DNA of 64,000 bases, from positions 4,421 through 68,420 of the forward strand of contig JACPTX010000054.1 in the NCBI GenBank assembly GCA_016192545.1, in the 5' to 3' direction. Origin of the DNA: Candidatus Omnitrophota bacterium (lineage in GTDB: Bacteria; Omnitrophota; Gorgyraeia; Aquiviventales; Aquiviventaceae). This document shows positions 3,654-63,152 of the stretch, piece after piece. A program made the translations under genes and the position numbers. The number at the start of each line of letters is the position of its first letter. Position 1 is the first letter of the stretch. Below the pieces are notes generated by a model. It saw only the letters and a list, made by a program, of their open reading frames with translations, did no database searches and had not been told where the DNA came from.

Positions 3654-8128
<4,475 letters not shown>

Positions 8129-8185: not shown

Positions 8186-8207
8186 TATTGTCCGTCGGCC
8201 ATTCACC

Positions 8208-9287
8208 ATGACCATCACACACGCACACATCCTTCAGGCCCTCGCACAGGTGCACGATCCCGATCTCCATCAGGACATCGTGTCGCTCGGGTTCGTGAAG
8301 CGCCTGGCGATTGACGGCGGGCGGGTGTCCTTCGCCATCGAGCTCACCACGCCGGCCTGCCCGGTGCGCGACCAGATGAAGGCGCAGGCGATGCAGGCGG
8401 TCCGCGCGCTGCCCGGCGTCACCCAGGTGGACGTCACGATGACCTCGCAGGTGCGTCCGTCGCGTTCCGCTCAGTCGCGCGGGACCAGCCTCATCCCCAC
8501 GATCAAGAACGTCGTCGCCGTCGCCAGCGGCAAGGGCGGGGTCGGCAAATCCACCGTGAGCGCGAACCTCGCCCTGGCGCTGGCCGGGACCGGTGCGCGG
8601 GTCGGACTGATGGATGCCGACGTCTACGGTCCCAGCATTCCGATCATTGTGGGCGTCGGCACCGAGCCGCAGATCACGGCGGAGCGCCGGATCATCCCGG
8701 TTGAGCACGACGGCCTCAAGATCATCTCGATGGGATTCTTCATGAAGGCGGCGGACGCGGTGATCTGGCGCGGGCCCATGCTCCACAAAACGGTCGAACA
8801 ATTCCTGGGCGGGGTCGAGTGGGGCGAGCTGGATTACCTGCTGGTTGATCTGCCGCCGGGGACCGGGGACGTCCAGCTCTCGCTCTGCCAGCTCATCCCG
8901 CTGACCGGCGCGGTCATCGTCTCGACGCCGCAGGACGTGGCGCTCAACGTCGCGCAGAAGGCGATTGCGATGTTCAAGAAGCTCAACACGCCGGTGCTCG
9001 GCGTGATTGAAAACATGAGCGCCTACACGTGTCCGCACTGCGGCAAGCGCGAGGACATTTTCGGGACCGGCGGAGCGCGCAAGTCGGCCGAGCGCATGGG
9101 CCTGCCGTTCCTGGGCGAGATTCCGCTGGCGACGGTGATTCGCGAGACCTCGGATGCCGGGCGTCCCATCGTGCTCAGCGCGCCGGACTCGCCGGCGGCC
9201 AAGGCGTTTATCGCAGCGGCCGAACAGCTCGCCGCCCAAGTCAGCATCCGCGCCATGCAAGGCGAGCCGGTCAAGGTGACATTCTGA
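8208..9287 (+). CDS. apbC: Mrp/ApbC/NBP35-type Fe-S cluster carrier ATPase with N-terminal DUF59
   Basis: Deviant Walker A ASGKGGVGKST, CPHCG motif, and a DUF59-like N-terminus. Confidence 0.9.
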   Translation: MTITHAHILQALAQVHDPDLHQDIVSLGFVKRLAIDGGRVSFAIELTTPACPVRDQMKAQAMQAVRALPGVTQVDVTMTSQVRPSRSAQSRGTSLIPTIKNVVAVASGKGGVGKSTVSANLALALAGTGARVGLMDADVYGPSIPIIVGVGTEPQITAERRIIPVEHDGLKIISMGFFMKAADAVIWRGPMLHKTVEQFLGGVEWGELDYLLVDLPPGTGDVQLSLCQLIPLTGAVIVSTPQDVALNVAQKAIAMFKKLNTPVLGVIENMSAYTCPHCGKREDIFGTGGARKSAERMGLPFLGEIPLATVIRETSDAGRPIVLSAPDSPAAKAFIAAAEQLAAQVSIRAMQGEPVKVTF

Positions 9288-11589: not shown

Positions 11590-12816
11590 ATGAAGTACGT
11601 GGTGGTGTTACCGGATGGCGTGTCGGACGTCCCCCTCAAGGAGCTGGGCGGCAAGACCCCGCTTGAGGCCGCGAAGCATCCGAACATGGACTGGATCGCC
11701 CGCGAAGGGATCACGGGCTGGGCGCGGACGATCCCGCCGGGATTCGCCCCGGGCTCGGACGTGGGGTGCATGAGCGTGTTCGGCTATGACCCGCGCCGGT
11801 ATCACACCGGCCGCGCGCCGCTGGAAGCCGCGGCCCAGGGCATCGTGCTCACGGATTCACAGGTCGCGTTCCGCTGCAACACCCTGACCGTCGAGCACGG
11901 CGTGATGATCGACCACTCGGCGGACCACATCAAGACCGAAGACTCGGCGCAGCTCATGAAGACGGTGAGCGAGCGGCTCGGCGGCAACGGGGTGCAATTC
12001 CATGCCGGCGTGAGCTACCGCCACCTTGCCATCGTGTCGAGTGATGAGTGTCGAGTGACGAGTGAAGAGCTGGCCAAAATAGAGTGCACGCCGCCGCACG
12101 ACATCCTGGGAAAGCCCATTGACGGCTATCTGCCGAAGGGGCCGGGCTCCGACGTGCTGCGGCGGGTGATGCAGGAGTCCGTCGCGATTCTGGAGGCGCA
12201 TCCCGTGAACCGGCGGCGCGCGGCGGGCGGCCAACATGCCGCGACGATGCTGTGGTTCTGGGGGCAGGGCACGGCGACGGCCTTGCCGGCCTTTCAACAG
12301 GTGTACGGGAAGCGCGGGGCGTGCATCAGCGCGGTGGACATCGTGCGCGGCATCGGGCGGCTGGCCGGCCTGGAGATTTTGCAGGTGCCGGGCATCACCG
12401 GCTATTTCGACACCAACTACACCGGCAAGGCCGCCTATGCGCTCAAGGCGCTCGACGACGGGTTCGACTTCGTCCTGGTGCACGTCGAGTCCACGGATGA
12501 AGCCGGGCACATGGGCGACGCGAAGAAAAAGGTCCAGGCCATCGAGGACGTGGACCGGCTGGTGGCGGGCGCGCTGCTCGAAGGGCTGACGCGGCGCGGC
12601 GAGCCGTTTGGTATCATGGTGGTGCCGGACCATCCCACGGACACCACGCGCAGGACCCACATCCCGGAGCCGGTGCCGTTTGCGGTCTATGCCACGAACG
12701 GCGCGAAGGATGCGGTAGCCGCGTATACAGAATCAGCGGTGAAAGGCTCGTCGCTGAGATTTGAAGAAGGGCATCAATTGATGTCGCGGTTCCTTGGTTG
12801 GGGTCAGACCCCATAA
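11590..12816 (+). CDS. apgM: cofactor-independent phosphoglycerate mutase, archaeal type
   Basis: MKYVVVLPDG..D.P start and the HVESTDEAGHMGD metalloenzyme motif. I prefer ATG 11590 to the extended ORF that starts at 11500. Confidence 0.85.
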   Translation: MKYVVVLPDGVSDVPLKELGGKTPLEAAKHPNMDWIAREGITGWARTIPPGFAPGSDVGCMSVFGYDPRRYHTGRAPLEAAAQGIVLTDSQVAFRCNTLTVEHGVMIDHSADHIKTEDSAQLMKTVSERLGGNGVQFHAGVSYRHLAIVSSDECRVTSEELAKIECTPPHDILGKPIDGYLPKGPGSDVLRRVMQESVAILEAHPVNRRRAAGGQHAATMLWFWGQGTATALPAFQQVYGKRGACISAVDIVRGIGRLAGLEILQVPGITGYFDTNYTGKAAYALKALDDGFDFVLVHVESTDEAGHMGDAKKKVQAIEDVDRLVAGALLEGLTRRGEPFGIMVVPDHPTDTTRRTHIPEPVPFAVYATNGAKDAVAAYTESAVKGSSLRFEEGHQLMSRFLGWGQTP

Positions 12817-12838
12817 TTCTTGAGGGGTCTGACCCCTC
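12800..12838 (+). repeat. family B palindromic repeat (GGGGTCAGACCCC ... GGGGTCTGACCCCTC), short variant
   Basis: Cores at 12800-12812 and 12824-12836. The apgM stop lies inside the element. AAGGAGG (12842-12848) and the pepA ATG follow. Confidence 0.85.
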
Positions 12839-12852
12839 TATAAGGAGGTTTC

Positions 12853-14322
12853 ATGCGTGTCTTTGTGAAGGCGGGTCGAGGTGACGGGTTGCAGGTCGTG
12901 GCGGCGCTCGAAGGCGACGCGAAACCGGAGCGGTTCCTGCCGGTGGCGGCGCTGCGCGACCGCGAGCTGGGGCGGCTCGCCGCCGGGGCGGGATTCCGGG
13001 GCGCGGCCAACGAGACCGTGCTCTTGCCGCGCGGCCCCCAATGGGTGTTGGTGGTGGGGCTCGGCAAGTCCAAGGACCTGTCGCTTGAGCGCCTCCGGCA
13101 GTTCGCCGGCACCGCGTCCCGCGCCGCCCGTTCGCGCGGGTTCCGCCGCGTGGTCCTGCCGGTCCTCTATGACCGGGCGCTGGGTCCGGCCTCCGGCGTG
13201 GCGCAGGTGCTGGTGGAAGGCGCGCTGCTCGGCCTGTACCGCTACGACCGGTTCCGGCGATTGCCGAAGCATGAGCGCGGCAAGCGGGTTGACGCCCTCA
13301 CCATTGTCGTCGGGCGCTCCAGCGAAGTCGGCGAGGCCAGGCGCGGGGCGGAGAAGGGACAGATCCTGGCGGAATCCGTGTCGTTTGCGCGCGACCTCAT
13401 CAACGGGCCGTCGAACGTCGTCACCCCGACCGTGCTGGCGAACGAGGCGCGGGCGCTCGCCAGGCGGCACCGGCTCTCCTGCACGGTCATGCCGTTCGCC
13501 CGGCTGAAGCGGCTCGGGTTCGGCGGGGTCGTCGGGGTCGCGCAGGGCAGCGCCCACCCGGCGCAGTTCATCGTCCTGGATTACCGGCCTTCGCGCGCGA
13601 AGAGGACGTTCGCGCTCTGCGGCAAGGGCATCACGTTCGACTCCGGGGGCATCAGCCTCAAGCCCGCGGAGAAGATGGAGCAGATGAAGTACGACATGTC
13701 CGGCGCGGCGGCGGTGCTGGGTGCGGTGCAGGCCGCGGCGCGGCTGCGCCTGCCCTCCCGGATCGTCGGGATCATCGCGGCGACCGAGAACCTGCCCTCC
13801 GGGACCGCGCAGAAGCCCGGCGACGTGCTGAAGACGCTCTCCGGCAAGACCGTCGAGGTCATCAACACCGACGCCGAGGGGCGGCTGGTGCTGGCGGACT
13901 GCCTCCAGTACGCCAAACGCTACAAGCCGGACTGCGTGGTGGACCTGGCGACGCTGACCGGCGCGTGCGTCGTCGCGCTGGGCGGCGAGGCGATTGGGCT
14001 GTTCACGAAGGACGAGAAGCTGGCGGCCCGGCTGAACGAAGCCGGCAAGCTCACGCACGAGCGGGTCTGGCGGCTGCCGCTGTGGGACGAGTATGCGCCG
14101 CTCATCAAATCCGACGTGGCGGACGTCAAAAACGCAGGCGGCCGTGAAGGCGGGGCGATCACCGCCGCCAAATTCCTCGAGGAGTTCGCCGGCGGGCTGC
14201 CGTGGGTGCACCTGGACATCGCCGGCACGGCCTGGGTCGACAAGGACAAGCCCTACGTGCCGAAGGGCGCGGTCGGGGTCGGGATCCGGCTGCTGATTCA
14301 ACTGATGGAACGCTGGAGGTAA
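12853..14322 (+). CDS. pepA: leucyl aminopeptidase (M17)
   Basis: NTDAEGRLVLAD signature; 489 aa. Confidence 0.9.
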   Translation: MRVFVKAGRGDGLQVVAALEGDAKPERFLPVAALRDRELGRLAAGAGFRGAANETVLLPRGPQWVLVVGLGKSKDLSLERLRQFAGTASRAARSRGFRRVVLPVLYDRALGPASGVAQVLVEGALLGLYRYDRFRRLPKHERGKRVDALTIVVGRSSEVGEARRGAEKGQILAESVSFARDLINGPSNVVTPTVLANEARALARRHRLSCTVMPFARLKRLGFGGVVGVAQGSAHPAQFIVLDYRPSRAKRTFALCGKGITFDSGGISLKPAEKMEQMKYDMSGAAAVLGAVQAAARLRLPSRIVGIIAATENLPSGTAQKPGDVLKTLSGKTVEVINTDAEGRLVLADCLQYAKRYKPDCVVDLATLTGACVVALGGEAIGLFTKDEKLAARLNEAGKLTHERVWRLPLWDEYAPLIKSDVADVKNAGGREGGAITAAKFLEEFAGGLPWVHLDIAGTAWVDKDKPYVPKGAVGVGIRLLIQLMERWR

Positions 14323-14331
14323 CGCGCGACC

Positions 14332-17464: not shown

Positions 17465-17517
17465 GAGGGGTCTGACCCCGTCTGATAAACCGTCGCGCTT
17501 GAGGGGTCTGACCCCTC
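17465..17517 (+). repeat. family B palindromic repeat
   Basis: Cores at 17467-17479 and 17503-17515. AAGGAGG and the aldolase ATG follow. Confidence 0.85.
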
Positions 17518-20356: not shown

Positions 20357-20408
20357 GGGGTCAGACCCCGTCAGTTGAGGCCGTCGTTCTTGAGGGGTCT
20401 GACCCCTC
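20357..20408 (+). repeat. family B palindromic repeat
   Basis: Cores at 20357-20369 and 20394-20406, starting directly after the alpha-subunit stop. GAGGAGGA and the beta-subunit ATG follow. Confidence 0.85.
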
Positions 20409-26377: not shown

Positions 26378-26451
26378 GCGCCCGTAGCTCACTTGGATAG
26401 AGCGCTTGGCTTCGAACCAAGAGGCAGCAGGTTCGATTCCTGCCGGGCGCA
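26378..26451 (+). tRNA. tRNA-Arg (anticodon TCG)
   Basis: Acceptor GCGCCCG/CGGGCGC, anticodon stem CTTGG/CCAAG with loop CTTCGAA, T-arm GCAGG-TTCGATT-CCTGC. Confidence 0.9.
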
Positions 26452-26589
26452 CTTTTCTGAGTAGGCAGGAATCGAGGGGAGGCCCGACTTCGGTTGATCA
26501 GCGTCGGCGCGACGAATAGGAGCGCCGACATACCTTAGGAGGGCCGGGTGGCCGACCCGGAGCCCCGCCGATAGCGGGGCGGAGGGCGC

Positions 26590-26606
26590 CGATTCCTGCC
26601 GGGCGC
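26590..26606 (+). repeat. 17-nt direct repeat of the tRNA-Arg(TCG) 3' end
   Basis: CGATTCCTGCCGGGCGC occurs at 26434-26450 (inside the tRNA) and again at 26590-26606. An inverted copy, GGCAGGAATCG, lies at 26464-26474. Confidence 0.8.
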
Positions 26607-26627
26607 GTTCTTCTGCGGATGTGTCGC

Positions 26628-26700
26628 GGGCCGTTAGCTCAACTGGTAGAGCAGGGGACTCTTAATCCCAAGGTCGAAGGTTCGATCCCTTCACGGCCCA
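26628..26700 (+). tRNA. tRNA-Lys (anticodon CTT)
   Basis: Acceptor GGGCCGT/ACGGCCC, anticodon loop CTCTTAA, T-arm GAAGG-TTCGATC-CCTTC. Confidence 0.9.
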
Positions 26701-26717
26701 TCGTTTGATCCCAGCAA

Positions 26718-26798
26718 GGGCGGGTGGCGGAATGGCAGACGCGACGGCCTTAGGAGCCGTTGGGGAAACCCGTAGAGGTTCAAATCCTCTCTCGCCCA
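26718..26798 (+). tRNA. tRNA-Leu (anticodon TAG), class II with long variable arm
   Basis: Acceptor GGGCGGG/CTCGCCC, anticodon stem ACGGC/GCCGT with loop CTTAGGA, variable arm GGGGAAACCC, T-arm AGAGG-TTCAAAT-CCTCT. Confidence 0.85.
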
Positions 26799-26816
26799 CG
26801 ACGGTGTGTGATCGAC

Positions 26817-26888
26817 GCGGGAGTAGCTCAGGGGTAGAGCGTCACGTTGCCAACGTGAATGTCGCGGGTTCAAATCCCGTCTCCCGCT
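26817..26888 (+). tRNA. tRNA-Gly (anticodon GCC)
   Basis: Acceptor GCGGGAG/CTCCCGC, anticodon loop TTGCCAA, T-arm GCGGG-TTCAAAT-CCCGT. Confidence 0.9.
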
Positions 26889-32973: not shown

Positions 32974-33779
32974 GCGACGCCCTCAGCGCGGTGCTGCTGG
33001 CGGCCGGCTATGGGACGCGGCTGTACCCGCTGACGAAGGACCGCCCCAAAGCGCTGCTGCCGCTGGGAGACACGGTGCTGCTGGATCCGGTCATGGACGC
33101 CCTCCGCGCGGTCCCCGGGCTGGCGTCGATGGTGCTCGTGAGCAACCACCGGTTTGCGGAGGGGTTCCGTCAGTGGCGGGCTCAACGGGGCCTGGCGCTC
33201 GAGGTGGTGGACGACGGGACCGACGCCCCGGAAACCCGCCTGGGAGCGATCCGGGATCTCCTGCTGGGGCTGGCCCGCGTGCCGGCGTCGCATGACGCGC
33301 TCGTGCTGGGAACCGACAATCTCTTTACGTGGTCGCTGGCGGAGTTTGTGCGCGTCGCCAGAACCAAACGCCCTGCCGCGACGGTGACGCTCCGGCAGTC
33401 CCCGTCACGCGACGAGGCCCGTCGGTGCGCGGTCGTGGACGTGGAGCCGGACGGCCGGGTGCGCCGCTATGTCGAGAAACCCGCGGAGCCGTTCTCCTCG
33501 ATCGTGGGGCTGTGTGTGTACTATCTGCCGTCGTCCGTGCGGCGTCGGGTGCAGGAATTCCTCGACCAGGGCGGCCAGGGGGATGCGCCGGGGTATTTCA
33601 TCGAATGGCTGGTGAGCCGGGAACCGGTGTATGGGTTCCTGACGGCAGGCGAGTGGTTTGACGTGGGGACGCAAGCCTCGTACCAGGCGGCGGTTCAGCG
33701 GTGGCCAGGCGCGGAGAGGGGTCAGACCCCGTCGGGTAACCCGTCGTTCTTGAGGGGTCTGACCCCTCGCGACTCATAA
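32970..33779 (+). CDS. sugar-phosphate nucleotidyltransferase (NTP_transferase family)
   Basis: The product begins with the motif [21 protein letters not shown]. The last ~20 codons ([21 protein letters not shown]) are encoded by a family B repeat. Confidence 0.75.
33718..33768 (+). repeat. family B palindromic repeat
   Basis: Cores at 33718-33730 and 33754-33766. AAGGAGG (33778-33784) overlaps the upstream TAA, and the metK ATG follows. Confidence 0.85.
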
Positions 33780-39219: not shown

Positions 39220-39403
39220 GCGAGGGCTGAGGATAGCATGCGAGCCAACCCAGTGTCAATTCGCCTTCGGCGGGTGACGCGGAGCGGGGGCCCCCGCCGC
39301 CCGCCCGCAGATCCGCCATGATCGTTGGCGGACGAGGACGGACGGCGGGGTCGCGCAGCGGCAGGCCCCGCCGAAGTGACCCATCACCAATCTGGGACAG
39401 GTC

Positions 39404-43287: not shown

Positions 43288-43349
43288 TTCAATCAGCCGT
43301 GTGACAAACCCGCCACCCAGCGTGGCGGGTCAGCCCCCAGGCTCTTGTC

Positions 43350-43440
43350 GGGGTGGCTGAGGCTAACCATCTGTAAGGGTGGGGCGCAAAGCTACGGGCC
43401 CTTGACATCTAAGATGTCAAGGACAGCCGAGCTGCCAAAA
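43350..43440 (+). promoter_or_regulatory. c-di-GMP-I (GEMM-I) riboswitch-like element
   Basis: Segment-by-segment match to the Vc2 aptamer as I recall it:
- GGCTAACC versus GGCAAACC.
- CCATCT-GTAA-GGGTGG, a GNRA-capped helix, versus CCAUUC-GAAA-GAGUGG.
- GGCGCAAAGC versus GACGCAAAGC.
- A long helix, CCTTGACATCT-A-AGATGTCAAGG.
- ACAGCCGAGCTGCC closing strand.
The element ends 10 nt before ATG 43446. Confidence 0.65.
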
Positions 43441-43445
43441 CGGAC

Positions 43446-43733
43446 ATGGCCAATACCGTAGACCATAATTCATCCTCTCCGCAGAATCACGCCCGGGCGC
43501 ACCGGGTCATCGCCTCCCTCAACCGCGAACAGGTCGATGTCCTTGATAAGATCGGCAAGGACGCGCTGTTCTCCTCAGGCACCAAGCTCTCCCGCACCGA
43601 AATCCTCTCCGCCCTGGTGAACGTCCTGCGGCGGTTGAACCTCACCGGGGAAGGGATTCAGAGCCCGGCGCAGTTTGAGCAGCGGGTGGTGGATCTGGTC
43701 ATCAAGGCACGAGGAGGCAAACATCATGCCTAG
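43446..43733 (+). CDS. hypothetical 95-aa protein, first gene after the riboswitch (possible ribbon-helix-helix-like fold)
   Basis: ORF with no recognisable family. Its 3' end overlaps the pilT start by 8 nt. The RHH suggestion rests only on the LSRTEILSALVNVLRRL helix pattern. Confidence 0.45.
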   Translation: MANTVDHNSSSPQNHARAHRVIASLNREQVDVLDKIGKDALFSSGTKLSRTEILSALVNVLRRLNLTGEGIQSPAQFEQRVVDLVIKARGGKHHA

Positions 43734-44839: not shown

Positions 44840-45331
44840 GTGGTGCAGATGGCGCGGCGCATCATCACGAAGCGGATCGGGGACATCCTCCTGGAGCGCG
44901 GGGTCATCACCCCCAAGCAGCTCGAGGGCGCCCTGCAGCGCCAACAAGAGCGCGGCGGGCTCTTGGGCCAGGCGCTCATCGACCTCGGGCATGTCACCGA
45001 GGAGGAAGTGGCCCTCGCCCTGACCGCCCAGTACGGCTTTCCGTATCTGCCGCTTGACAACTATGAGATTGACCGCGACGTGACCCAACTGGTCCCCGAA
45101 CATGTCGCGCGGCAGTACTGCCTGATCCCCATCGACCGGATCGGCAACGCCTTGACGGTCGCCATGGCCGACCCATCCAACTCCCAGGCGATCGAAGACA
45201 TCGAGATTCTCACCAACTGCGTGATTCAGACGTTCGTCAGCACGCCCTCCCATATCCAAAAAGCCATCAACCGCTGCTACAAGCACGAGACGGACGCCGC
45301 ACCCACCCCGCCAACCTCCAACACGTCGTAG
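44840..45331 (+). CDS. stand-alone MshEN / T2SSE_N domain protein, predicted c-di-GMP receptor
   Basis: RIGDILLERGVITPKQLEGALQRQ, a 5-residue spacer (QERGG), then LLGQALIDLGHVTEEEVALALTAQ. Together these fit the published tandem 24-residue MshEN motif, RLGxx(L/V/I)(L/V/I)xxG(L/V/I)(L/V/I)xxxxLxxxLxxQ. There is no ATPase domain. The start could be GTG 44840 or ATG 44849. Confidence 0.7.
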   Translation: MVQMARRIITKRIGDILLERGVITPKQLEGALQRQQERGGLLGQALIDLGHVTEEEVALALTAQYGFPYLPLDNYEIDRDVTQLVPEHVARQYCLIPIDRIGNALTVAMADPSNSQAIEDIEILTNCVIQTFVSTPSHIQKAINRCYKHETDAAPTPPTSNTS

Positions 45332-47066: not shown

Positions 47067-47175
47067 CCCTTCGACGCGGCCTTCGGCCTTGTGGTTCGAC
47101 GGGCTCACCATCCCTCGAACCATCCCGAGCGAGGTCGAGGGACTCAGGGTCATGGTGAGCGGAGTCGAACCATGA
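47063..47175 (+). repeat. family A palindromic intercistronic element, 109-bp long variant bounded by ATGA
   Basis: ATGA at 47063 (pilB copy 1 stop) and at 47172 (pilB copy 2 start). The ends match the short units. The interior carries an inverted copy of the right arm: GGTTCGAC...CTCACCAT against ATGGTGAG...GTCGAACC. Confidence 0.85.
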
Positions 47176-48872
47176 GCTTCAAGGATCGCCTGTCGAAGGC
47201 GCTGGTCGCCAAGGGGCTGCTGAAGGAAGAGCAGCTCGGCCAGCTGGCCCGTGAAGCGGGTGCGGCGAAGAAGAGCCTGGCGCAGGTGGTGATCGAGCGG
47301 GGTCTGGTCACGGAGACCGCGCTCGTCGGGCTCCTCGCGGAAGAGCTGGGCATCCCCACGCTGTCCCTGTCGAAATACCGGATCGATCCGGCGGTGGCCC
47401 GCATCATCCCGGAACGGATCGCCCGGCAATACACCCTGATCCCGATCACCAAATTCGGAGAACGCCTGGTCGTGGCGATGGCGGATCCGATGAACATCTT
47501 CGCGCTCGATGATCTCAAGGTGCTGACCCGCTATGCGGTGGATCCGGTGCTGGCGAAGGACGCGGACATCCGGCGCGCGATTGAGCAGGCCTACGGCCAG
47601 CCCTCCAACCTCGCGATCGCGCTCTCCGGCGACAACGGCGAGTCCGCCTCCGTGACGGAGACCGACACCCTGGACAGCACGGTCCAGCTCATGTTGTCCG
47701 AGGAAGCCGGCGATGCCCCGGTCGTCAAAGCCATCAACCTGATGATTGTGGAAGCGCTCCGCAACCGCGCCTCGGACATCCATCTGGAGCCGGTGGAGCA
47801 GGGGCTGCGCATCCGCTACCGGATCGACGGGCGCCTGCGGGAAGCGCATCGCCTGCCGAAGGCGATCCAGAGCACCGTGTTGACGCGGCTGAAGATTCTC
47901 TCAGGGCTCGACATCACGGAGTGGCGGCTGCCGCAGGATGGGCGGTTCAAAGTCCGGCTGGACGCGCGCGAGGTGGACTTCCGGGTGTCGGTGCTGCCGA
48001 TCACCCATGGCGGCAAGGTCGTGCTGCGGGTGCTGGATCAGAGCAACCTGTCCATCGGGTTGGACCACCTGGGATTCCTGCCGGAGTCGATCGAGCGGTT
48101 CAAGGAGGCCGTCAGCCGGCCCCACGGCATGATCCTGGTGACCGGCCCGACCGGCTCCGGGAAGTCCACGACGCTCTACTCGATCCTCAACCAGCTCAAC
48201 AACCCGACCCGCAACATCACGACCATCGAGGATCCGGTGGAATACCAGCTGGCGGGCATCACCCAGGTGCAGGTGAATCCCGACATCGGCCTGACGTTCG
48301 CGGCCGGGCTGCGGGCCCTGCTGCGCCAGAGCCCTGATGTGGTGATGGTCGGCGAGATCCGGGACTTTGAAACGGCTGACATCGCCATGAAAGCCAGTCT
48401 GACCGGCCAACTCGTGCTGTCCACCCTGCATACGAACGACGCGCCCTCGGCGGTCTCGCGGCTGGTGGACATGGGGGTGGAGCCGTTCCTGGTGGCCTCG
48501 AGCGCCACGCTCATCGAGGCCCAGCGGCTGGTCCGCAAGCTGTGTCCGAACTGCCGCAAGCCCGCCGAGCCGCCCAAGGATCTGCTGAAACGCTTGAACT
48601 GCTCCCCGGGGAAGGAGGCGACGTTCTTCCGGGCGGAGGGGTGTCACCTGTGCAACCGCAGCGGCTATCGGGGCCGGATGGGCATCATCGAGGTCTTGAT
48701 GGTTGATGAGCATGTGAGGGAGCTGATCGTGGGGAAGGCCCAGTCCTGGGAAATCAAGGACTATGCGGTCACGCGCCTGGGGATGACCCCGTTGCGCGAA
48801 GACGGCCTGAGGAAGGCGGCGATGGGATTGACGACGCTGGAAGAGGTCCTGCAGGTGACGTCGGAGGAGTAA
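47172..48872 (+). CDS. pilB: type IV pilus / T2SS assembly ATPase (GspE/PilB family), copy 2
   Basis: 566 aa from ATG 47172, with Walker A GPTGSGKST and CPNC...CHLC. The ORF-track start at 47091 lies inside the repeat. Confidence 0.9.
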   Translation: MSFKDRLSKALVAKGLLKEEQLGQLAREAGAAKKSLAQVVIERGLVTETALVGLLAEELGIPTLSLSKYRIDPAVARIIPERIARQYTLIPITKFGERLVVAMADPMNIFALDDLKVLTRYAVDPVLAKDADIRRAIEQAYGQPSNLAIALSGDNGESASVTETDTLDSTVQLMLSEEAGDAPVVKAINLMIVEALRNRASDIHLEPVEQGLRIRYRIDGRLREAHRLPKAIQSTVLTRLKILSGLDITEWRLPQDGRFKVRLDAREVDFRVSVLPITHGGKVVLRVLDQSNLSIGLDHLGFLPESIERFKEAVSRPHGMILVTGPTGSGKSTTLYSILNQLNNPTRNITTIEDPVEYQLAGITQVQVNPDIGLTFAAGLRALLRQSPDVVMVGEIRDFETADIAMKASLTGQLVLSTLHTNDAPSAVSRLVDMGVEPFLVASSATLIEAQRLVRKLCPNCRKPAEPPKDLLKRLNCSPGKEATFFRAEGCHLCNRSGYRGRMGIIEVLMVDEHVRELIVGKAQSWEIKDYAVTRLGMTPLREDGLRKAAMGLTTLEEVLQVTSEE

Positions 48873-48876
48873 GCGG

Positions 48877-50082
48877 ATGCCGAGTTTCGCCTACGTCGTC
48901 AAGGACAAGGCCGGGCAGACGCACCACGGCGTGCTCGACACGCCCTCGCGGCAGGCCCTCATCGAGCAGCTCTGGAAACAGGAATTCGTCGTCCTGTCGA
49001 TCGAGGAACGGCAGGCCAAGCGGGCGAGGGCCTTCTCGCCCGGCGGCGTGAAGGCGCACCAGCTGGTCGTGTTTTCGCGCCAGCTGGCGACGATGATCGG
49101 CAGCGGGATCCCCATCATCGGTTCCCTGGATGCGCTCGCCGAGCAGATGGAGGACCGGAACTTCCGGCGGATCCTGCGGCGCATGCGGGATGATGTCGAG
49201 GCCGGCTCCAGCCTGTCGGAAGCGCTGGCCAAGCACCCCCGCGCGTTCTCCGACTTCTTCCTGAACATGGTCAGAGCCGGCGAGTCGTCAGGGCGCCTGG
49301 ATGAAATCCTGGACCGGCTGGCCAACTATCTGGAAAAGATCGACGTGATGCGCCGGAAGGTCCAGGCCAGCCTGTACTATCCGGCCGTCGTGACCGTCCT
49401 GGCGATGGGGATTACCGCGTTCCTGGTCATCTTCGTCGTGCCGAAATTCAAAGACATCTTCGCCTCGCTCGGGGGGCAGCTGCCGCTCGCCACGCGCCTG
49501 CTGCTGCAGGTGAGCGATTTCATGCGCCACTTCCTCTTGCTGGAGATCGGGCTCCTGATTGCGGCCATCATCGGCTTTCGGATGTACATCGGGACCAAGG
49601 GCGGACGGGCCTGGTTCGACCGCGTCAAACTGGACCTCCCCGTCATCGGCATCCTCCTGCGGAAAGTGGCGATCGCCCGGTTTGCCAGGACGCTGGCCAC
49701 GCTCGCGCGGGCCGGCGTGCCCATCCTGACGGCGATGGAAATCGTGGCGAGGACATCCGGCAACAAAGTGATTGAGACGGCGGTGATGACCGCGCGCACG
49801 AGCGTGCGGGAAGGGGAGAACATCGCCGATCCGCTCGCCCAGAGCAAGGCGTTCCCTCCGATGGTGACGCGGATGATTTCCGTCGGGGAAAAGACCGGCG
49901 AGCTCGAGAAGATGCTGTCCAAGGTCGCCGATTTCTACGAAAGCGAGGTCGACGCCGCCGTCTCCGGGCTGACCAGCCTGATCGAACCGCTCATCATCGC
50001 GTTCCTCGGGCTGGTGATCGGCTCCATCGTCATCGCGCTCTTCATGCCGATCTTCACCATCACCCAGCTCATCCAGCGATAA
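48877..50082 (+). CDS. pilC: type IV pilus inner-membrane platform protein (GspF/PilC family)
   Basis: 401 aa with two T2SSF repeats. Confidence 0.9.
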   Translation: MPSFAYVVKDKAGQTHHGVLDTPSRQALIEQLWKQEFVVLSIEERQAKRARAFSPGGVKAHQLVVFSRQLATMIGSGIPIIGSLDALAEQMEDRNFRRILRRMRDDVEAGSSLSEALAKHPRAFSDFFLNMVRAGESSGRLDEILDRLANYLEKIDVMRRKVQASLYYPAVVTVLAMGITAFLVIFVVPKFKDIFASLGGQLPLATRLLLQVSDFMRHFLLLEIGLLIAAIIGFRMYIGTKGGRAWFDRVKLDLPVIGILLRKVAIARFARTLATLARAGVPILTAMEIVARTSGNKVIETAVMTARTSVREGENIADPLAQSKAFPPMVTRMISVGEKTGELEKMLSKVADFYESEVDAAVSGLTSLIEPLIIAFLGLVIGSIVIALFMPIFTITQLIQR

Positions 50083-50087
50083 GGGGC

Positions 50088-50117
50088 TTGACGAAGCCCC
50101 GGTCCCCACGGTATAGT
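50088..50117 (+). promoter_or_regulatory. strong sigma70-like promoter upstream of the pilin leader
   Basis: TTGACG (50088-50093), 18-nt spacer, TATAGT (50112-50117). The -35 box sits inside the hairpin GGGGCTT-GACG-AAGCCCC (50083-50100) that follows the pilC stop. Confidence 0.6.
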
Positions 50118-50123
50118 AGAAAT

Positions 50124-50346
50124 AACTCACGAGAAAGCCACACCTCCGCCACCATGCGTGGCGGATCCGCCGATGCATGTTGGCGGACGTCGAAAGGCGG
50201 GGCCGGAAAGCCACAGGCCCAAGAATGTGCAGGCAGTTGACCGTGTTCCCGGCACGGGGCGACTGACCAGCAGGGCAGCTGGGTTGCCGCATGAGGACAA
50301 CGAGCGATGGAGTGGGAGCCATTGTCCGCGCGGCAGTGGCTTTTTT
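50124..50346 (+). ncRNA. candidate structured leader / riboswitch-like attenuator, or an independent ~220-nt sRNA, upstream of the major pilin; class unknown
   Basis: Six consecutive hairpins:
- Twin TCCGCC/GGCGGA stems at 50145-50165 and 50166-50187.
- A GAAA-capped stem at 50188-50199.
- 50200-50220.
- 50234-50265.
- 50267-50282.
An antiterminator follows (50286-50290 and 50295-50300 pairing with 50322-50327 and 50330-50334). It is mutually exclusive with the terminator stem at 50318-50340. Confidence 0.5.
50318..50346 (+). terminator. intrinsic terminator inside the pilin leader
   Basis: GCCATTGTC (50318-50326) pairs with GGCAGTGGC (50332-40), with a 5-nt loop. TTTTTT follows at 50341-50346. 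Confidence 0.7.
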
Positions 50347-50407
50347 CTTGGAAGGAGGTGAGACCGCAGAGCACGCACGTAACGGCAAGGGGCAGACCCC
50401 ATGTGTC

Positions 50408-50459
50408 GGGGTCAGACCCCGTCAGTTGAGACCATTGTTCTTGAGGGGTCTGACCCCTC
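50408..50459 (+). repeat. family B palindromic repeat, preceded by degenerate partial copies at 50347-50400
   Basis: Cores at 50408-50420 and 50445-50457. AAAGGAGG (50461-50468) and the pilin ATG follow. Confidence 0.85.
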
Positions 50460-50477
50460 TAAAGGAGGCTTCATTCG

Positions 50478-51035
50478 ATGAGTCCATTCAAACGACAGGC
50501 TCGAGCAGGGTTCACCCTGATCGAGATCATGATCGTCGTGGCGATCATCGCGCTCCTGGCGGCGGTGGCGATCCCGAACGTGCTCCGCGGCCGGACCAGC
50601 GCGAATGAATCCGCGGCGATCAGCAACATGCGGGCCCTGATGAGCTCGCTGGAGATGTACCGGTCGGTCAACAACGTGTATCCGGATGACTTCGACGATG
50701 ACATGTATGGAGCCGGCGGGGACTGTGATGCTGGCGTCGCGCCGGATCCGGACTACGGTCCGCCATCGTTCTGTCTGGACCTGATCGCCGGGGACGACGT
50801 GCAGGGGTTCGACTACATCTACACCAACCTGCCGGCCGCCTGTGACAATACCGCGGGATCGGAGTGTGTGCAGTTTACGTTGACGGCCGATCCGGTCGAT
50901 GCGGGGAGAACCGGCACCCGATCCTTCTATGTGGACGAGTCCGGGACCATCCGACACTGCACGGCGGATGCGGATGACGACTTGGCGACGGTCGCCGACG
51001 AGACATTGGACGATCCGCCTGCGGACTGTGCGTAA
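50478..51035 (+). CDS. pilA: type IV (pseudo)pilin, probable major pilin
   Basis: Prepilin leader MSPFKRQARAG followed by FTLIEIMIVVAIIALLAAVAIPN. The C-terminal domain is very acidic and has six Cys. Confidence 0.85.
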   Translation: MSPFKRQARAGFTLIEIMIVVAIIALLAAVAIPNVLRGRTSANESAAISNMRALMSSLEMYRSVNNVYPDDFDDDMYGAGGDCDAGVAPDPDYGPPSFCLDLIAGDDVQGFDYIYTNLPAACDNTAGSECVQFTLTADPVDAGRTGTRSFYVDESGTIRHCTADADDDLATVADETLDDPPADCA

Positions 51036-51065
51036 TCGGATCGTGTGAATCGGTTAACTGACGTG

Positions 51066-51109
51066 CATGAAAGCGGCCCCATGTCCGGGAACGCGGGGCC
51101 GCTTTCATG
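51066..51109 (+). terminator. 15-bp perfect hairpin between the two pilin paralogues (attenuator/terminator candidate)
   Basis: CATGAAAGCGGCCCC (51066-51080) and GGGGCCGCTTTCATG (51095-51109). The loop contains ATG 51081. Confidence 0.5.
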
Positions 51110-51560
51110 TTTCCGACACGGGTTCACGTTTCTTGAGATTCTGGTCGTGGTGACGATCCTGAGTCTCCTGGCGCTGCTCGGGCTGGTCAACGTGGTGCGA
51201 GCGCGGCTGGTGGGCAACGAGACCGTCACGATTGCGAACCTCCGGGAATTATCGGTGGCCCTGCGGGCCTATCACAGTGTCAACAACACGTACCCGGATC
51301 CGCTGGGACTGCTGAGTGATGTGACGCCGCCCTATGTGTATCCGGAGCTGACCGGCGGCAGCGGCGCCAACGGGAATGCGGATCTGGCCGGCTATGCGTA
51401 TGACTACGTCTGGGAAGGCCTCGACGATTACGCGCTGATCACCAGGCCGGTGACCGAGAGGGTGACCGGCGTCAGGCGGTTTTGGGTGGACGAGACGAGT
51501 GCGATTCGGTATACCGTGGATGGGACTGACCCAACCGTCAACAGCCCGCTGATTCAATGA
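51081..51560 (+). CDS. type IV pilin paralogue
   Basis: The prepilin motif is GFTFLEILVVVTILSLLALL. It shares YHSVNNTYPD and RRFWVDETSAIRY with pilA (YRSVNNVYPD, RSFYVDESGTIRH). The start is ATG 51081, or GTG 51045 from the ORF track. Confidence 0.8.
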   Translation: MSGNAGPLSCFRHGFTFLEILVVVTILSLLALLGLVNVVRARLVGNETVTIANLRELSVALRAYHSVNNTYPDPLGLLSDVTPPYVYPELTGGSGANGNADLAGYAYDYVWEGLDDYALITRPVTERVTGVRRFWVDETSAIRYTVDGTDPTVNSPLIQ

Positions 51561-61323: not shown

Positions 61324-61395
61324 GGGCCGGTAGCTCAGTGGCAGAGCAGGTGGCTCATAACCACTTGGTCGGACGTTCGATCCGTCCCCGGCCCA
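61324..61395 (+). tRNA. tRNA-Met (anticodon CAT), elongator-like
   Basis: Acceptor GGGCCGG/CCGGCCC, anticodon loop CTCATAA. It lacks the initiator GGG/CCC anticodon stem, and Ile2 (lysidine) identity cannot be excluded. Confidence 0.85.
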
Positions 61396-61413
61396 CTCTT
61401 GCGGACGGATCAG

Positions 61414-61487
61414 GGGCGGTTAGCTCAGCCGGTTAGAGCGCTACCCTCACATGGTAGAGGTCACAGGTTCGAGCCCTGTACCGCCCA
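61414..61487 (+). tRNA. tRNA-Val (anticodon CAC)
   Basis: Acceptor GGGCGGT/ACCGCCC, anticodon stem CTACC/GGTAG with loop CTCACAT. Confidence 0.9.
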
Positions 61488-61494
61488 GGTTCTT

Positions 61495-61544
61495 GGGGTC
61501 AGACCCCTCAAGAACGCCGGTCCATCAGACGGGGTCTGACCCCG
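61495..61544 (-). repeat. family B palindromic repeat, inverted orientation
   Basis: Cores at 61495-61507 and 61531-61543. The sequence is the reverse complement of the other five copies. No SD follows on the + strand. Confidence 0.85.
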
Positions 61545-62718: not shown

Positions 62719-63152
62719 GGAACCGAAGAGCAGCCTGATGGCCGCCTCGCCCTGTTCGGCAGGGGGCGGGGAGGAAAGTCCGAGCTCCGAAGGGCAGCGT
62801 ACCCTGTGAAACACAGGGCCCCCCAGGCCTTCCTGCCCCCAGACTGGGGGAAGGCAGGAATGGGGGAGGATCAGAGCCACAGAGACGAGTATCCCCGAGT
62901 CTTCCTGTCCCCCGTTCGCGGGGAAGACAGGATCGGGGGGACGTGAAACGCGGCAATCTCTACGTGGAGCAAGGCCAAACACCCTACGTTTCAGGTTGCC
63001 CGCCTGACCCCCATCGTTTTGCTTCGGTTTGCGAAGCAAAACGAAGCAATGGGGGCGTAGGAAGGTGGGCCGCAAGAGTCCCGTCGCAAGACGCGACCCA
63101 GATGGATGGCCATCCTCGACAGAACTCGGCTTACCGGCTGCTTTTCGGTTCC
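62719..63152 (+). ncRNA. rnpB: RNase P RNA, bacterial type A
   Basis: P1 pairing is GGAACCGAAGAGCAGCC with GGCTGCTTTTCGGTTCC. Conserved GGAGGAAAGTCCGAGCTCC, GGAGCAAGGCCAAA and ACAGAACTCGGCTTACCGG are present. It is longer than the E. coli RNA because of extra hairpins. Confidence 0.9.

Follow-up and report, generated by a model that had tools for sequence, protein, structure and literature searches.

Between pilC and the gene of the major type IV pilin, the genome of a Candidatus Omnitrophota bacterium contains a structured leader, and the question raised by this locus is which kind of RNA the leader encodes and how it could act on pilin synthesis. The window analysed here is a stretch of 64,000 nucleotides (nt) from assembly GCA_016192545.1 (contig JACPTX010000054.1, positions 4,421 to 68,420 of the forward strand), and all coordinates refer to its first letter as position 1. 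An earlier reading made from the letters of the window (the sequence-only reading) had described a promoter at 50088 followed by a multi-hairpin switch of unknown class. Region 50124-50346 is probably a class I riboswitch for cyclic dimeric guanosine monophosphate (c-di-GMP), that is, a c-di-GMP-I (GEMM-I) element whose ligand pocket is canonical and which is expanded at two places in a lineage-specific manner (by 43 nt in paired region P2 and by 52 nt in P3); it is predicted from sequence and folding to work as an OFF switch. On this assignment, c-di-GMP would directly control the major type IV pilin of Candidatus Omnitrophota, presumably with OFF polarity, and the understanding of how the c-di-GMP-I family works is left unchanged. 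The locus comprises the following parts, the lengths of proteins being given in amino acids (aa):

48877-50082: PilC-like gene (PF00482), the 5' neighbour of the leader spacer
50088-50117, + strand: sigma-70-type promoter TTGACG-N18-TATAGT, 5 nt past the pilC stop
50464-50468, + strand: Shine–Dalgarno (SD) sequence GGAGG of the pilin gene
50478-51035, + strand: type IV pilin gene, the predicted target of the switch (185 aa; PF07963 N_methyl; leader MSPFKRQARAG followed by FTLIE)

The promoter directly after pilC had already been pointed out in the sequence-only reading and holds up well, with 10 of 12 consensus matches and with the form TTGACN-17/18-(TGG)CATAGT kept in 17 of 17 relatives. From its position, the pilin transcript would start at about 50123-50125.

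Assignment to the c-di-GMP-I Family

At the gathering thresholds of Rfam, no match is obtained at 50088-50346. In a search by E-value threshold, the best-scoring Rfam model for the leader is RF03167 (the c-di-GMP-I-GGC variant, in the c-di-GMP-I clan CL00126), all 80 positions of which align to 50128-50292 with 35.6 bits, corresponding to E=1e-6 locally and to 1.2e-4 over the whole 64-kb window and 4227 families. This alignment takes a 53-nt insertion in the first hairpin and another of about 45 nt in the second, and it is because of these large insertions that the score stays below gathering and that the consensus is hard to spot by eye. Other Rfam families, searched on both strands of 50000-50560 with E-values up to 10, gave only noise.

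The homologous loci provide a firmer anchor. PilC relatives are found in metagenome-assembled genomes of Candidatus Omnitrophota, mostly from groundwater, at 58–69% identity (contigs of one genome per species, labelled L001, L003 and so on below), and 14 pilC–pilA spacers, the window included, carry the element in full; the element of L014 is cut off by the end of its contig. The pilin itself is matched exactly in a Logan assembly (SRR12113428). Two homologous leaders, L008 with 43.6 bits and L010 with 42.5 bits, lie above the RF01051 gathering score of 35, and the RF03167 scores of L006, L025, and L008 amount to 55.8, 49.8, and 48.8 bits. Moreover, a leave-out core covariance model, made from 12 relatives without the window and L063, finds the window leader at 50121-50300 (42 bits, E=2.9e-11), recovers L063, and also picks up, as 43345-43444 with 29.6 bits, a canonical riboswitch located elsewhere in the window:

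43351-43439, + strand: riboswitch 1, a canonical c-di-GMP-I element, the first member of the pilus cluster (58 bits with RF01051, gathering score 35)

In turn, a core model that includes all sequences detects, at 45–57 bits, the canonical riboswitches located upstream in L001, L003, L004, L010, and L068. Thus, the pilin leader and canonical c-di-GMP-I riboswitches are recognised by each other's models. With RF03167, the canonical element at 43351 reaches 56.5 bits as well, and the rank of this model as the top match of the leader reflects clan-level similarity only.

Judged by its sequence, the pilin leader is an expanded, sub-threshold member of the known c-di-GMP-I family and not a new riboswitch class. 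The sequence-only reading had checked by eye for a c-di-GMP-I signature and reported none, an error in view of the entire RF03167 model aligned to 50128-50292. It had also proposed an Rfam search as the touchstone for its label of unknown class, and by that measure the label falls, given the significant, if sub-threshold, match within the window; the two homologues above the RF01051 gathering score and the relatives-only model matching both riboswitches of the window speak against it as well. The element is therefore an example of a riboswitch missed both by curated thresholds and by eye, its consensus being split by large peripheral insertions, and expanded aptamers of like kind may be under-counted in candidate phyla.

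Two further results of these searches are of minor weight. A weak match of the leave-out model at 14235-14323 (+ strand; 14.7 bits, E=0.027) is probably noise, and a metagenome scan with the conserved 3' core GCTGGGTTGCCGCNNG returned at least 120 stretches, none of which, among the matches listed, had the 5' core, so that they are taken as chance matches.

Aptamer Fold and Ligand Pocket

The leader contains the core string CACG-AGAAAG-CC-ACA-CC...GG-GCC-GG-AA-AGCC-A-CAGGCC...GGC-AG-CUGGGUU-GC-CG, which can be laid out as the three-helix junction of P1, P2, and P3 with the bulges and the internal loop of the family. Paired regions and joining segments (J) are assigned as follows, with positions of the Vc2-type c-di-GMP-I riboswitch of Vibrio cholerae (RF01051) as reference:

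50126-50131, + strand: P1 5' strand CUCACG, pairing with 50288-50295, with C50290 and A50291 bulged
50132-50137, + strand: J1/2 AGAAAG; G50137 is the equivalent of Vc2 G20, G in 14/14 (alignment column 17)
50138-50206, + strand: P2 arm, with P2a C50138-C50139/G50205-G50206, internal loop ACA/GCC, and P2b C50143-C50144/G50200-G50201
50188-50199, + strand: GNRA hairpin CGUC-GAAA-GGCG at the tip of P2
50207-50208, + strand: J2/3 AA; A50207 is taken as the equivalent of Vc2 A47, AA in 14/14 (columns 44-45)
50209-50285, + strand: P3 arm, core helix 50209-50220/50273-50285, with A50213 and A50277-G50278 bulged
50286-50287, + strand: J3/1, G50286 and C50287; C50287 is the equivalent of C92

Variable insertions were excised, and the resulting 89-nt cores of the 14 sequences were aligned. 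Over this alignment, the 24 pairs of GEMM-I P1, P2, and P3 are 96.7% paired with four compensatory pairs, against 25–54% for slid-partner controls; P2 and P3 are each 100% paired, each with two compensatory pairs. Covariation in the core is limited because the core is 87% identical. The in-register P1 is 84% paired in the relatives, and we read the P1 of the window and of L063 as lying in a register shifted by the bulge. Plain minimum free energy (MFE) folding misses P2a and the base of P3, as is usual for the GEMM-I junction, and for this reason the fold was assigned via the family alignment. Compared with dinucleotide shuffles, the leader is unusually stable (z=-4.15), and so is its aptamer part (z=-3.2). 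Two of the six consecutive hairpins listed in the sequence-only reading (GGCC..GGCC, 50202-50219, and CAGC..GCUG, 50269-50281) are local pairings between strands of the three-helix junction, while its GAAA-capped stem is real and corresponds to 50188-50199.

The pocket residues carry the prediction of the ligand. In Vc2, G20 and C92 each read one guanine of c-di-GMP, and position 20 discriminates between ligands, with G as the signature of c-di-GMP and A as that of cyclic GMP-AMP (cGAMP), the ligand of GEMM-Ib (PMC6140456). The equivalents of G20, A47, and C92 in the leader (G50137, A50207, and C50287) are invariant in all 14 sequences. With regard to A47, we assume from the Vc2 structure both its role in the pocket and its equivalence to the first A of J2/3. 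At this place the RF03167 consensus (..GACGCGAAgCc..) has G as the first residue of J2/3, whereas the window (..GCCGGAAAGCC..) has A50207, like sequences that pass RF01051. With these canonical pocket residues, c-di-GMP is the predicted ligand.

The resemblance to Vc2 extends to the P1/P2/P3 junction, the AA of J2/3, the GC of J3/1, the GNRA loop of P2, and the core strings AAAG-CC-ACA-C and GG-AA-AGCC-A-C. The P2 tetraloop of the window is GAAA (50192-50195), and all 14 sequences have a GNRA loop (GUGA, GAAA, GAGA, GCAA, or GUAA). No 11-nt tetraloop receptor was identified, and the A-rich asymmetric loop AAGAAUG (50221-50227) at the place of the Vc2 receptor resembles it only. Unlike the Vc2-type aptamer of about 85–90 nt, the leader aptamer measures about 170 nt, and up to about 285 nt in relatives. 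In the window, a double hairpin of 43 nt is inserted in the 5' strand of P2, and P3 is longer by 52 nt and capped by UUCCCGG.

The Inserted Arms in P2 and P3

50145-50187, + strand: insertion of 43 nt in the 5' strand of P2, with TCCGCC..GGCGGA hairpins at 50145-50165 and 50166-50187
50221-50272, + strand: extension of P3, 52 nt (15–129 nt in relatives, with predicted long irregular arms)
50241-50257, + strand: apical hairpin of the P3 extension, with the loop motif UUCCCGG at 50246-50252

The two adjacent, near-identical TCCGCC/GGCGGA hairpins noticed in the sequence-only reading are indeed present, and the pattern is over-represented in the window (three matches against 0.34 expected), the third being a TCCGCC-N9-GGCGGA hairpin at 39312-39332 (+ strand). 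The loops of the two inserted hairpins are complementary (CAUGC/GCAUG), so that the pair can rearrange into one hairpin of 43 nt, which is the form preferred by MFE. As a core binding module the two hairpins did not survive comparison, since they occur in just three of the 14 homologous leaders: insertions in the 5' strand of P2 are restricted to the window and L063 (43 nt each) and L011 (84 nt, four module copies), and six relatives have insertions of 41–87 nt in the 3' strand of P2. Being lineage-specific and variable, these insertions, and with them the TCCGCC stems, cannot be the sensing module.

The P3 arm has a more regular feature. The motif YUCCCGG lies at or beside the predicted apex in 10 of 11 relatives with a long P3 arm (72–129 nt), namely in L001, L003, L007–L011, L025, L063, and L068 (as CUCCCGG in L025 and L063), as well as in the 52-nt arm of the window, and the stems flanking it differ in sequence among relatives. 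A pairing partner for the motif was not found. A pairing of the UUCCCGG loop with downstream GGGAGG/GGAGG was considered and set aside as speculation, since it amounts to 4–5 base pairs (bp) at most and both partners are nearly invariant.

It is doubtful, though slightly less so than any of the rival explanations discussed below, that the expansions are functional in the sense that the P3 UUCCCGG arm and the P2 TCCGCC hairpins form a second docking site for a protein or an RNA such as GGAGGUGA (see below), so that c-di-GMP would be combined with a second input in the leader, or the abundant terminated RNA would work in trans. If true, this would create an unusually layered c-di-GMP circuit in ultra-small Omnitrophota, together with three MshEN domains and a second riboswitch, in which one signal would both silence pilin synthesis and be sensed by the ATPases of pilus assembly. 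Apart from any function, the natural variants map the tolerance of GEMM-I, with P2 insertions of 0–87 nt in either strand and P3 extensions of 15–129 nt.

Terminator, Antiterminator, and Proposed Switch

50286-50300, + strand: 5' strand of the antiterminator, consisting of J3/1, the P1 3' strand (50288-50295), and GGACAA
50318-50346, + strand: intrinsic terminator, with a 9-bp stem 50318-50326/50332-50340 (GCCAUUGUC, loop CGCGC, GGCAGUGGC) and U6 at 50341-50346

A simple terminator scan of 49500-51500 flagged nothing despite the hairpin and its T6 tract, and the terminator was therefore checked by folding and covariation, both of which bear out the earlier claim. The hairpin has a predicted energy of -12.3 kcal/mol, and pairing in its stem amounts to 99.2% across 14 distinct sequences, with four compensatory pairs and a value reached by none of 500 shuffles; the U-tract of the window is the best of the set.

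The antiterminator proposed in the sequence-only reading is likewise recovered as a two-segment pairing (50286-50290/50330-50334 and 50295-50300/50322-50327), the 3' strand of which, 50322-50334, comprises the distal part of the terminator's 5' arm, its loop, and the opening bases of its 3' arm. In the window, it is predicted at -20.2 kcal/mol against the -12.3 kcal/mol of the terminator hairpin, and partial transcripts that stop after the first 4 nt of the terminator's 3' arm adopt the antiterminator fold in 14/14 sequences. By eye, the loop of the terminator tracks the bases that follow GCCGC, as in L063 (GCCGCAUG/CAUGCGGC), L009 (GCCGCUG/CAGCGGC), and L003 (GCUGGGAG/CUCC-AGC). The MFE of the full leader (-108.4) includes the antiterminator, while a state in which aptamer and terminator are enforced reaches -91.0; this gap would have to be bridged by the energy of the ligand and of tertiary contacts, which lies outside the folding model. 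Terminator covariation and antiterminator complementarity in all 14 sequences support the general picture drawn from the sequence, that of a riboswitch or attenuator whose terminator–antiterminator platform would gate pilin transcription from its own promoter.

A further long-range pairing in that reading, between 50132-50141 and 50336-50345, fared less evenly. It is strong in the window (-15.1 kcal/mol, and part of the MFE structure), but in 10 of the 13 relatives its predicted energy lies between -1.8 and -8.3 kcal/mol, and it was dismissed for want of conservation. Its source is the likeness of the GEMM-I core string AAAGCCAC to the 5' arm of the terminator.

The proposed mechanism would operate as follows. 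Transcription would begin at the conserved promoter just past pilC. In the absence of ligand, 50286-50300 would pair with 50322-50334 to form the antiterminator, and RNA polymerase would read into the pilin gene. When c-di-GMP is bound, P1 and J3/1 would be locked in the aptamer and the antiterminator would be blocked, which would allow the 50318-50340 hairpin with U6 to form and stop transcription at about 50346. High c-di-GMP would then mean less pilin messenger RNA (mRNA). The OFF polarity is predicted because aptamer and terminator do not overlap, while the antiterminator consumes the closing strand of the aptamer. The sequences show homology at the level of the family, conserved core helices and pocket residues, terminator covariation, and complementary antiterminator strands throughout the set; we infer the identity of the ligand, the termination event itself, and the sign of the response in vivo.

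Comparison with Known Switches

A close parallel in mechanism is Cd1 (Cdi-1-3), a class I OFF switch for c-di-GMP that precedes flgB in Clostridioides difficile (PMC9262584; PMC6366702). Cd1 acts on transcription: its aptamer can exist alongside the terminator, the 3' strand that closes the aptamer pairs with terminator strands as antiterminator, and a bound ligand brings about termination (PMC9262584; PMC6366702). The pilin leader shows the same platform, with a non-overlapping downstream terminator and an antiterminator built on the 3' closing strand of the aptamer. Cd1 differs from the leader, which is known from sequence, in that it controls the flagellar operon of a Firmicute, lacks expansions of P2 and P3, and has been studied by experiment.

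Two other switches resemble the leader in their gene context. Firstly, the pilM riboswitch of Geobacter metallireducens (GEMM-Ib) also has a fold of the GEMM-I type, precedes a type IV pilus gene, and works through an intrinsic terminator (PMC9262584), but it is a cGAMP sensor with A at the equivalent of position 20 and acts as an ON switch, whereas the leader has G and is predicted to be OFF. Secondly, Cdi-2-4 of C. difficile is a c-di-GMP riboswitch placed directly before the major pilin gene pilA1 and acting by transcription termination (PMC6366702), although it has the unrelated class II fold and is an ON switch in which c-di-GMP promotes read-through into the pilin gene, the opposite of the polarity predicted for the leader.

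Distribution in Candidatus Omnitrophota

The element has been labile in evolution. In L012, P3 is deleted (7476-7800), and in L013 the core of the aptamer is lost while promoter and terminator are kept (8206-8500). The core model also matches L005 at 9115-9199 and L015 at 2670-2745, about 0.9–1.3 kb downstream of pilC. Since these two loci have genes inserted between pilC and the pilin gene, the riboswitch appears to travel with the pilin gene and not with pilC. In more distant Omnitrophota, the promoter leads straight to AAGGAGGTGA-N6-ATG, where AAGGAGGTGA is the SD of the pilin gene. Between transcription start and P1, the conserved motif GACAAYUGA (with the variants GCACAAUUC and GGACAACUGA) was observed in L001, L006, L007, L008, L010, L025, and L068; it is absent from the window and from L063, where P1 begins nearly at the 5' end.

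Counter-Evidence and Alternative Explanations

Several observations weigh against a working c-di-GMP OFF switch. The element of the window falls short of every Rfam gathering score, and its P1 is weak, with 2 bp, a 2-nt bulge, and 4 bp. Owing to its insertion, P2 becomes a multi-way junction, which may or may not permit the docking of the GNRA loop. With regard to the expression platform, U-tracts are poor in several relatives (L006, L008), and the antiterminator in fixed register is 87.8% paired, no better than shuffles and with no compensatory double changes, as its 5' strand is the invariant core of the aptamer; the antiterminator is thus a prediction whose whole basis is conserved complementarity and energy. 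Moreover, L066, among the closest relatives (69% PilC identity), has the promoter without the riboswitch (8200-8400), which indicates that the element is dispensable. Finally, an OFF response of the pilin sits oddly with the MshEN-PilB ATPases of the cluster, as MshEN-PilB ATPases of other bacteria are activated by c-di-GMP.

Some of these points would fit a decayed GEMM-I copy, in which the weak P1 and the P2 insertion abolish ligand control and leave a constitutive 5' untranslated region (UTR) or a partial attenuator. The score below gathering, the interrupted P1 with its non-canonical pairs in the RF03167 and leave-out-model alignments, and the losses in L012 (P3), L013 (aptamer), and L066 (no riboswitch) point in this direction. 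However, the pocket residues and the core pairs of P2 and P3 are all intact, a P1 of 6 bp is available in the shifted register, the terminator of the window has the best U-tract of the set, and L063 and L011, with P2 insertions of like type, have kept the core intact, which makes decay unlikely.

It is somewhat less likely still that the terminated RNA, of roughly 220 nt, is a functional small RNA, either trans-acting or a c-di-GMP sponge, besides or instead of a role in cis. A strong promoter and a terminator would yield a discrete, stable, and highly structured RNA, and the P3 arm presents the invariant UUCCCGG loop at its tip. Nevertheless, no target complementarity was found, the element always stands directly upstream of the pilin gene in relatives, and the explanation in cis suffices.

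There is little to recommend a GEMM-I fold with another ligand, whether 3'3'-cGAMP as in GEMM-Ib or a different nucleotide. It is true that GEMM-I variants of altered specificity exist (PMC6140456) and that the top Rfam model is the variant RF03167 instead of RF01051. However, the cGAMP signature, A at position 20, is opposed by the G50137 equivalent invariant in 14/14, so by this mark the leader does not fit GEMM-Ib. Similarly, with 35.6 bits against a gathering score of 59 and with A50207, as in RF01051-passing sequences, in the place of the G found at the first J2/3 position of RF03167, it does not fit that variant either; moreover, RF03167 is not discriminating, as the score of the bona fide RF01051 riboswitch at 43351 indicates.

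Least credible of all is the reading of the leader as a new riboswitch or protein-binding attenuator class with the duplicated TCCGCC/GGCGGA stems as sensor, which goes back to the sequence-only reading, since, even though the two hairpins are real and over-represented and the window has no gathering-level Rfam match, 11 of 14 homologous leaders lack them while keeping the remainder of the element, and the conserved part is the GEMM-I core.

The Pilus Cluster

The c-di-GMP-I riboswitch of the pilin leader lies within a pilus cluster that begins with riboswitch 1, followed by an open reading frame (ORF) of 95 aa, a PilT-like ATPase, a stand-alone MshEN protein, and two MshEN-PilB-like ATPases, and that continues with PilC, riboswitch 2 (the pilin leader), the pilin with three minor pilins, PilM, PilO, and secretin. 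The following members are of interest with respect to c-di-GMP:

44840-45331, + strand: stand-alone MshEN protein, 163 aa
45342-47066 and 47091-48872, + strand: two PilB-like ATPases with MshEN domains

MshEN is a receptor domain for c-di-GMP. With two riboswitches and three MshEN domains in one cluster, the pilus system as a whole appears to be linked to c-di-GMP through RNA as well as through protein. No GGDEF motif was found in a six-frame translation of this 64-kb window, which says little about the whole genome. The end of riboswitch 1 is separated by 7 nt from the ATG of the 95-aa ORF (43446-43733), for which a Pfam search gave no match. A counterpart of riboswitch 1 is also seen upstream in relatives, the copy of L006 having an 80-nt P3 insertion and its own terminator. 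Housekeeping RNAs in the window comprise RNase P RNA (class A) and nine tRNA genes (62726-63149, 26378-26888, 61324-61487, 727-892, 2174-2248).

Downstream 5' UTR and Dispersed Repeats

50354-50361, + strand: SD-like GGAGGUGA, just past the terminator and about 100 nt before the pilin start
50408-50457, + strand: inverted repeat GGGGTCAGACCCC..GGGGTCTGACCCC (REP-like), an insertion within the 5' UTR of the pilin gene, outside the riboswitch
12800-12836, 17467-17515, 20357-20406, 33718-33766, and 61495-61543: other REP-like pairs

The SD-like sequence is found in 11 of 13 relatives, its carriers including L001, L006–L011, L025, L063, and L068 at the same position, and no start codon follows it at SD distance. 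The UTR after GGAGGUGA is purine-rich. In Omnitrophota that lack the riboswitch, this motif serves as the SD of the pilin gene. This sequence could be a relic, a standby site, or a stabiliser of the mRNA. A short ORF in the leader or after GGAGGUGA was considered and rejected, as its start codon is not conserved and insertion lengths vary by non-multiples of three.

The repeat in the pilin 5' UTR, which resembles repetitive extragenic palindromic (REP) sequences, consists of GGGGTCAGACCCC, 11–24 nt, and GGGGTCTGACCCC, and it occurs in the window in 12 copies forming six pairs, against 0.18 expected. A third, degenerate copy is present in the same UTR at 50389-50400, between the terminator of the riboswitch and the SD, and REP-like copies are also seen in L008 and L028.

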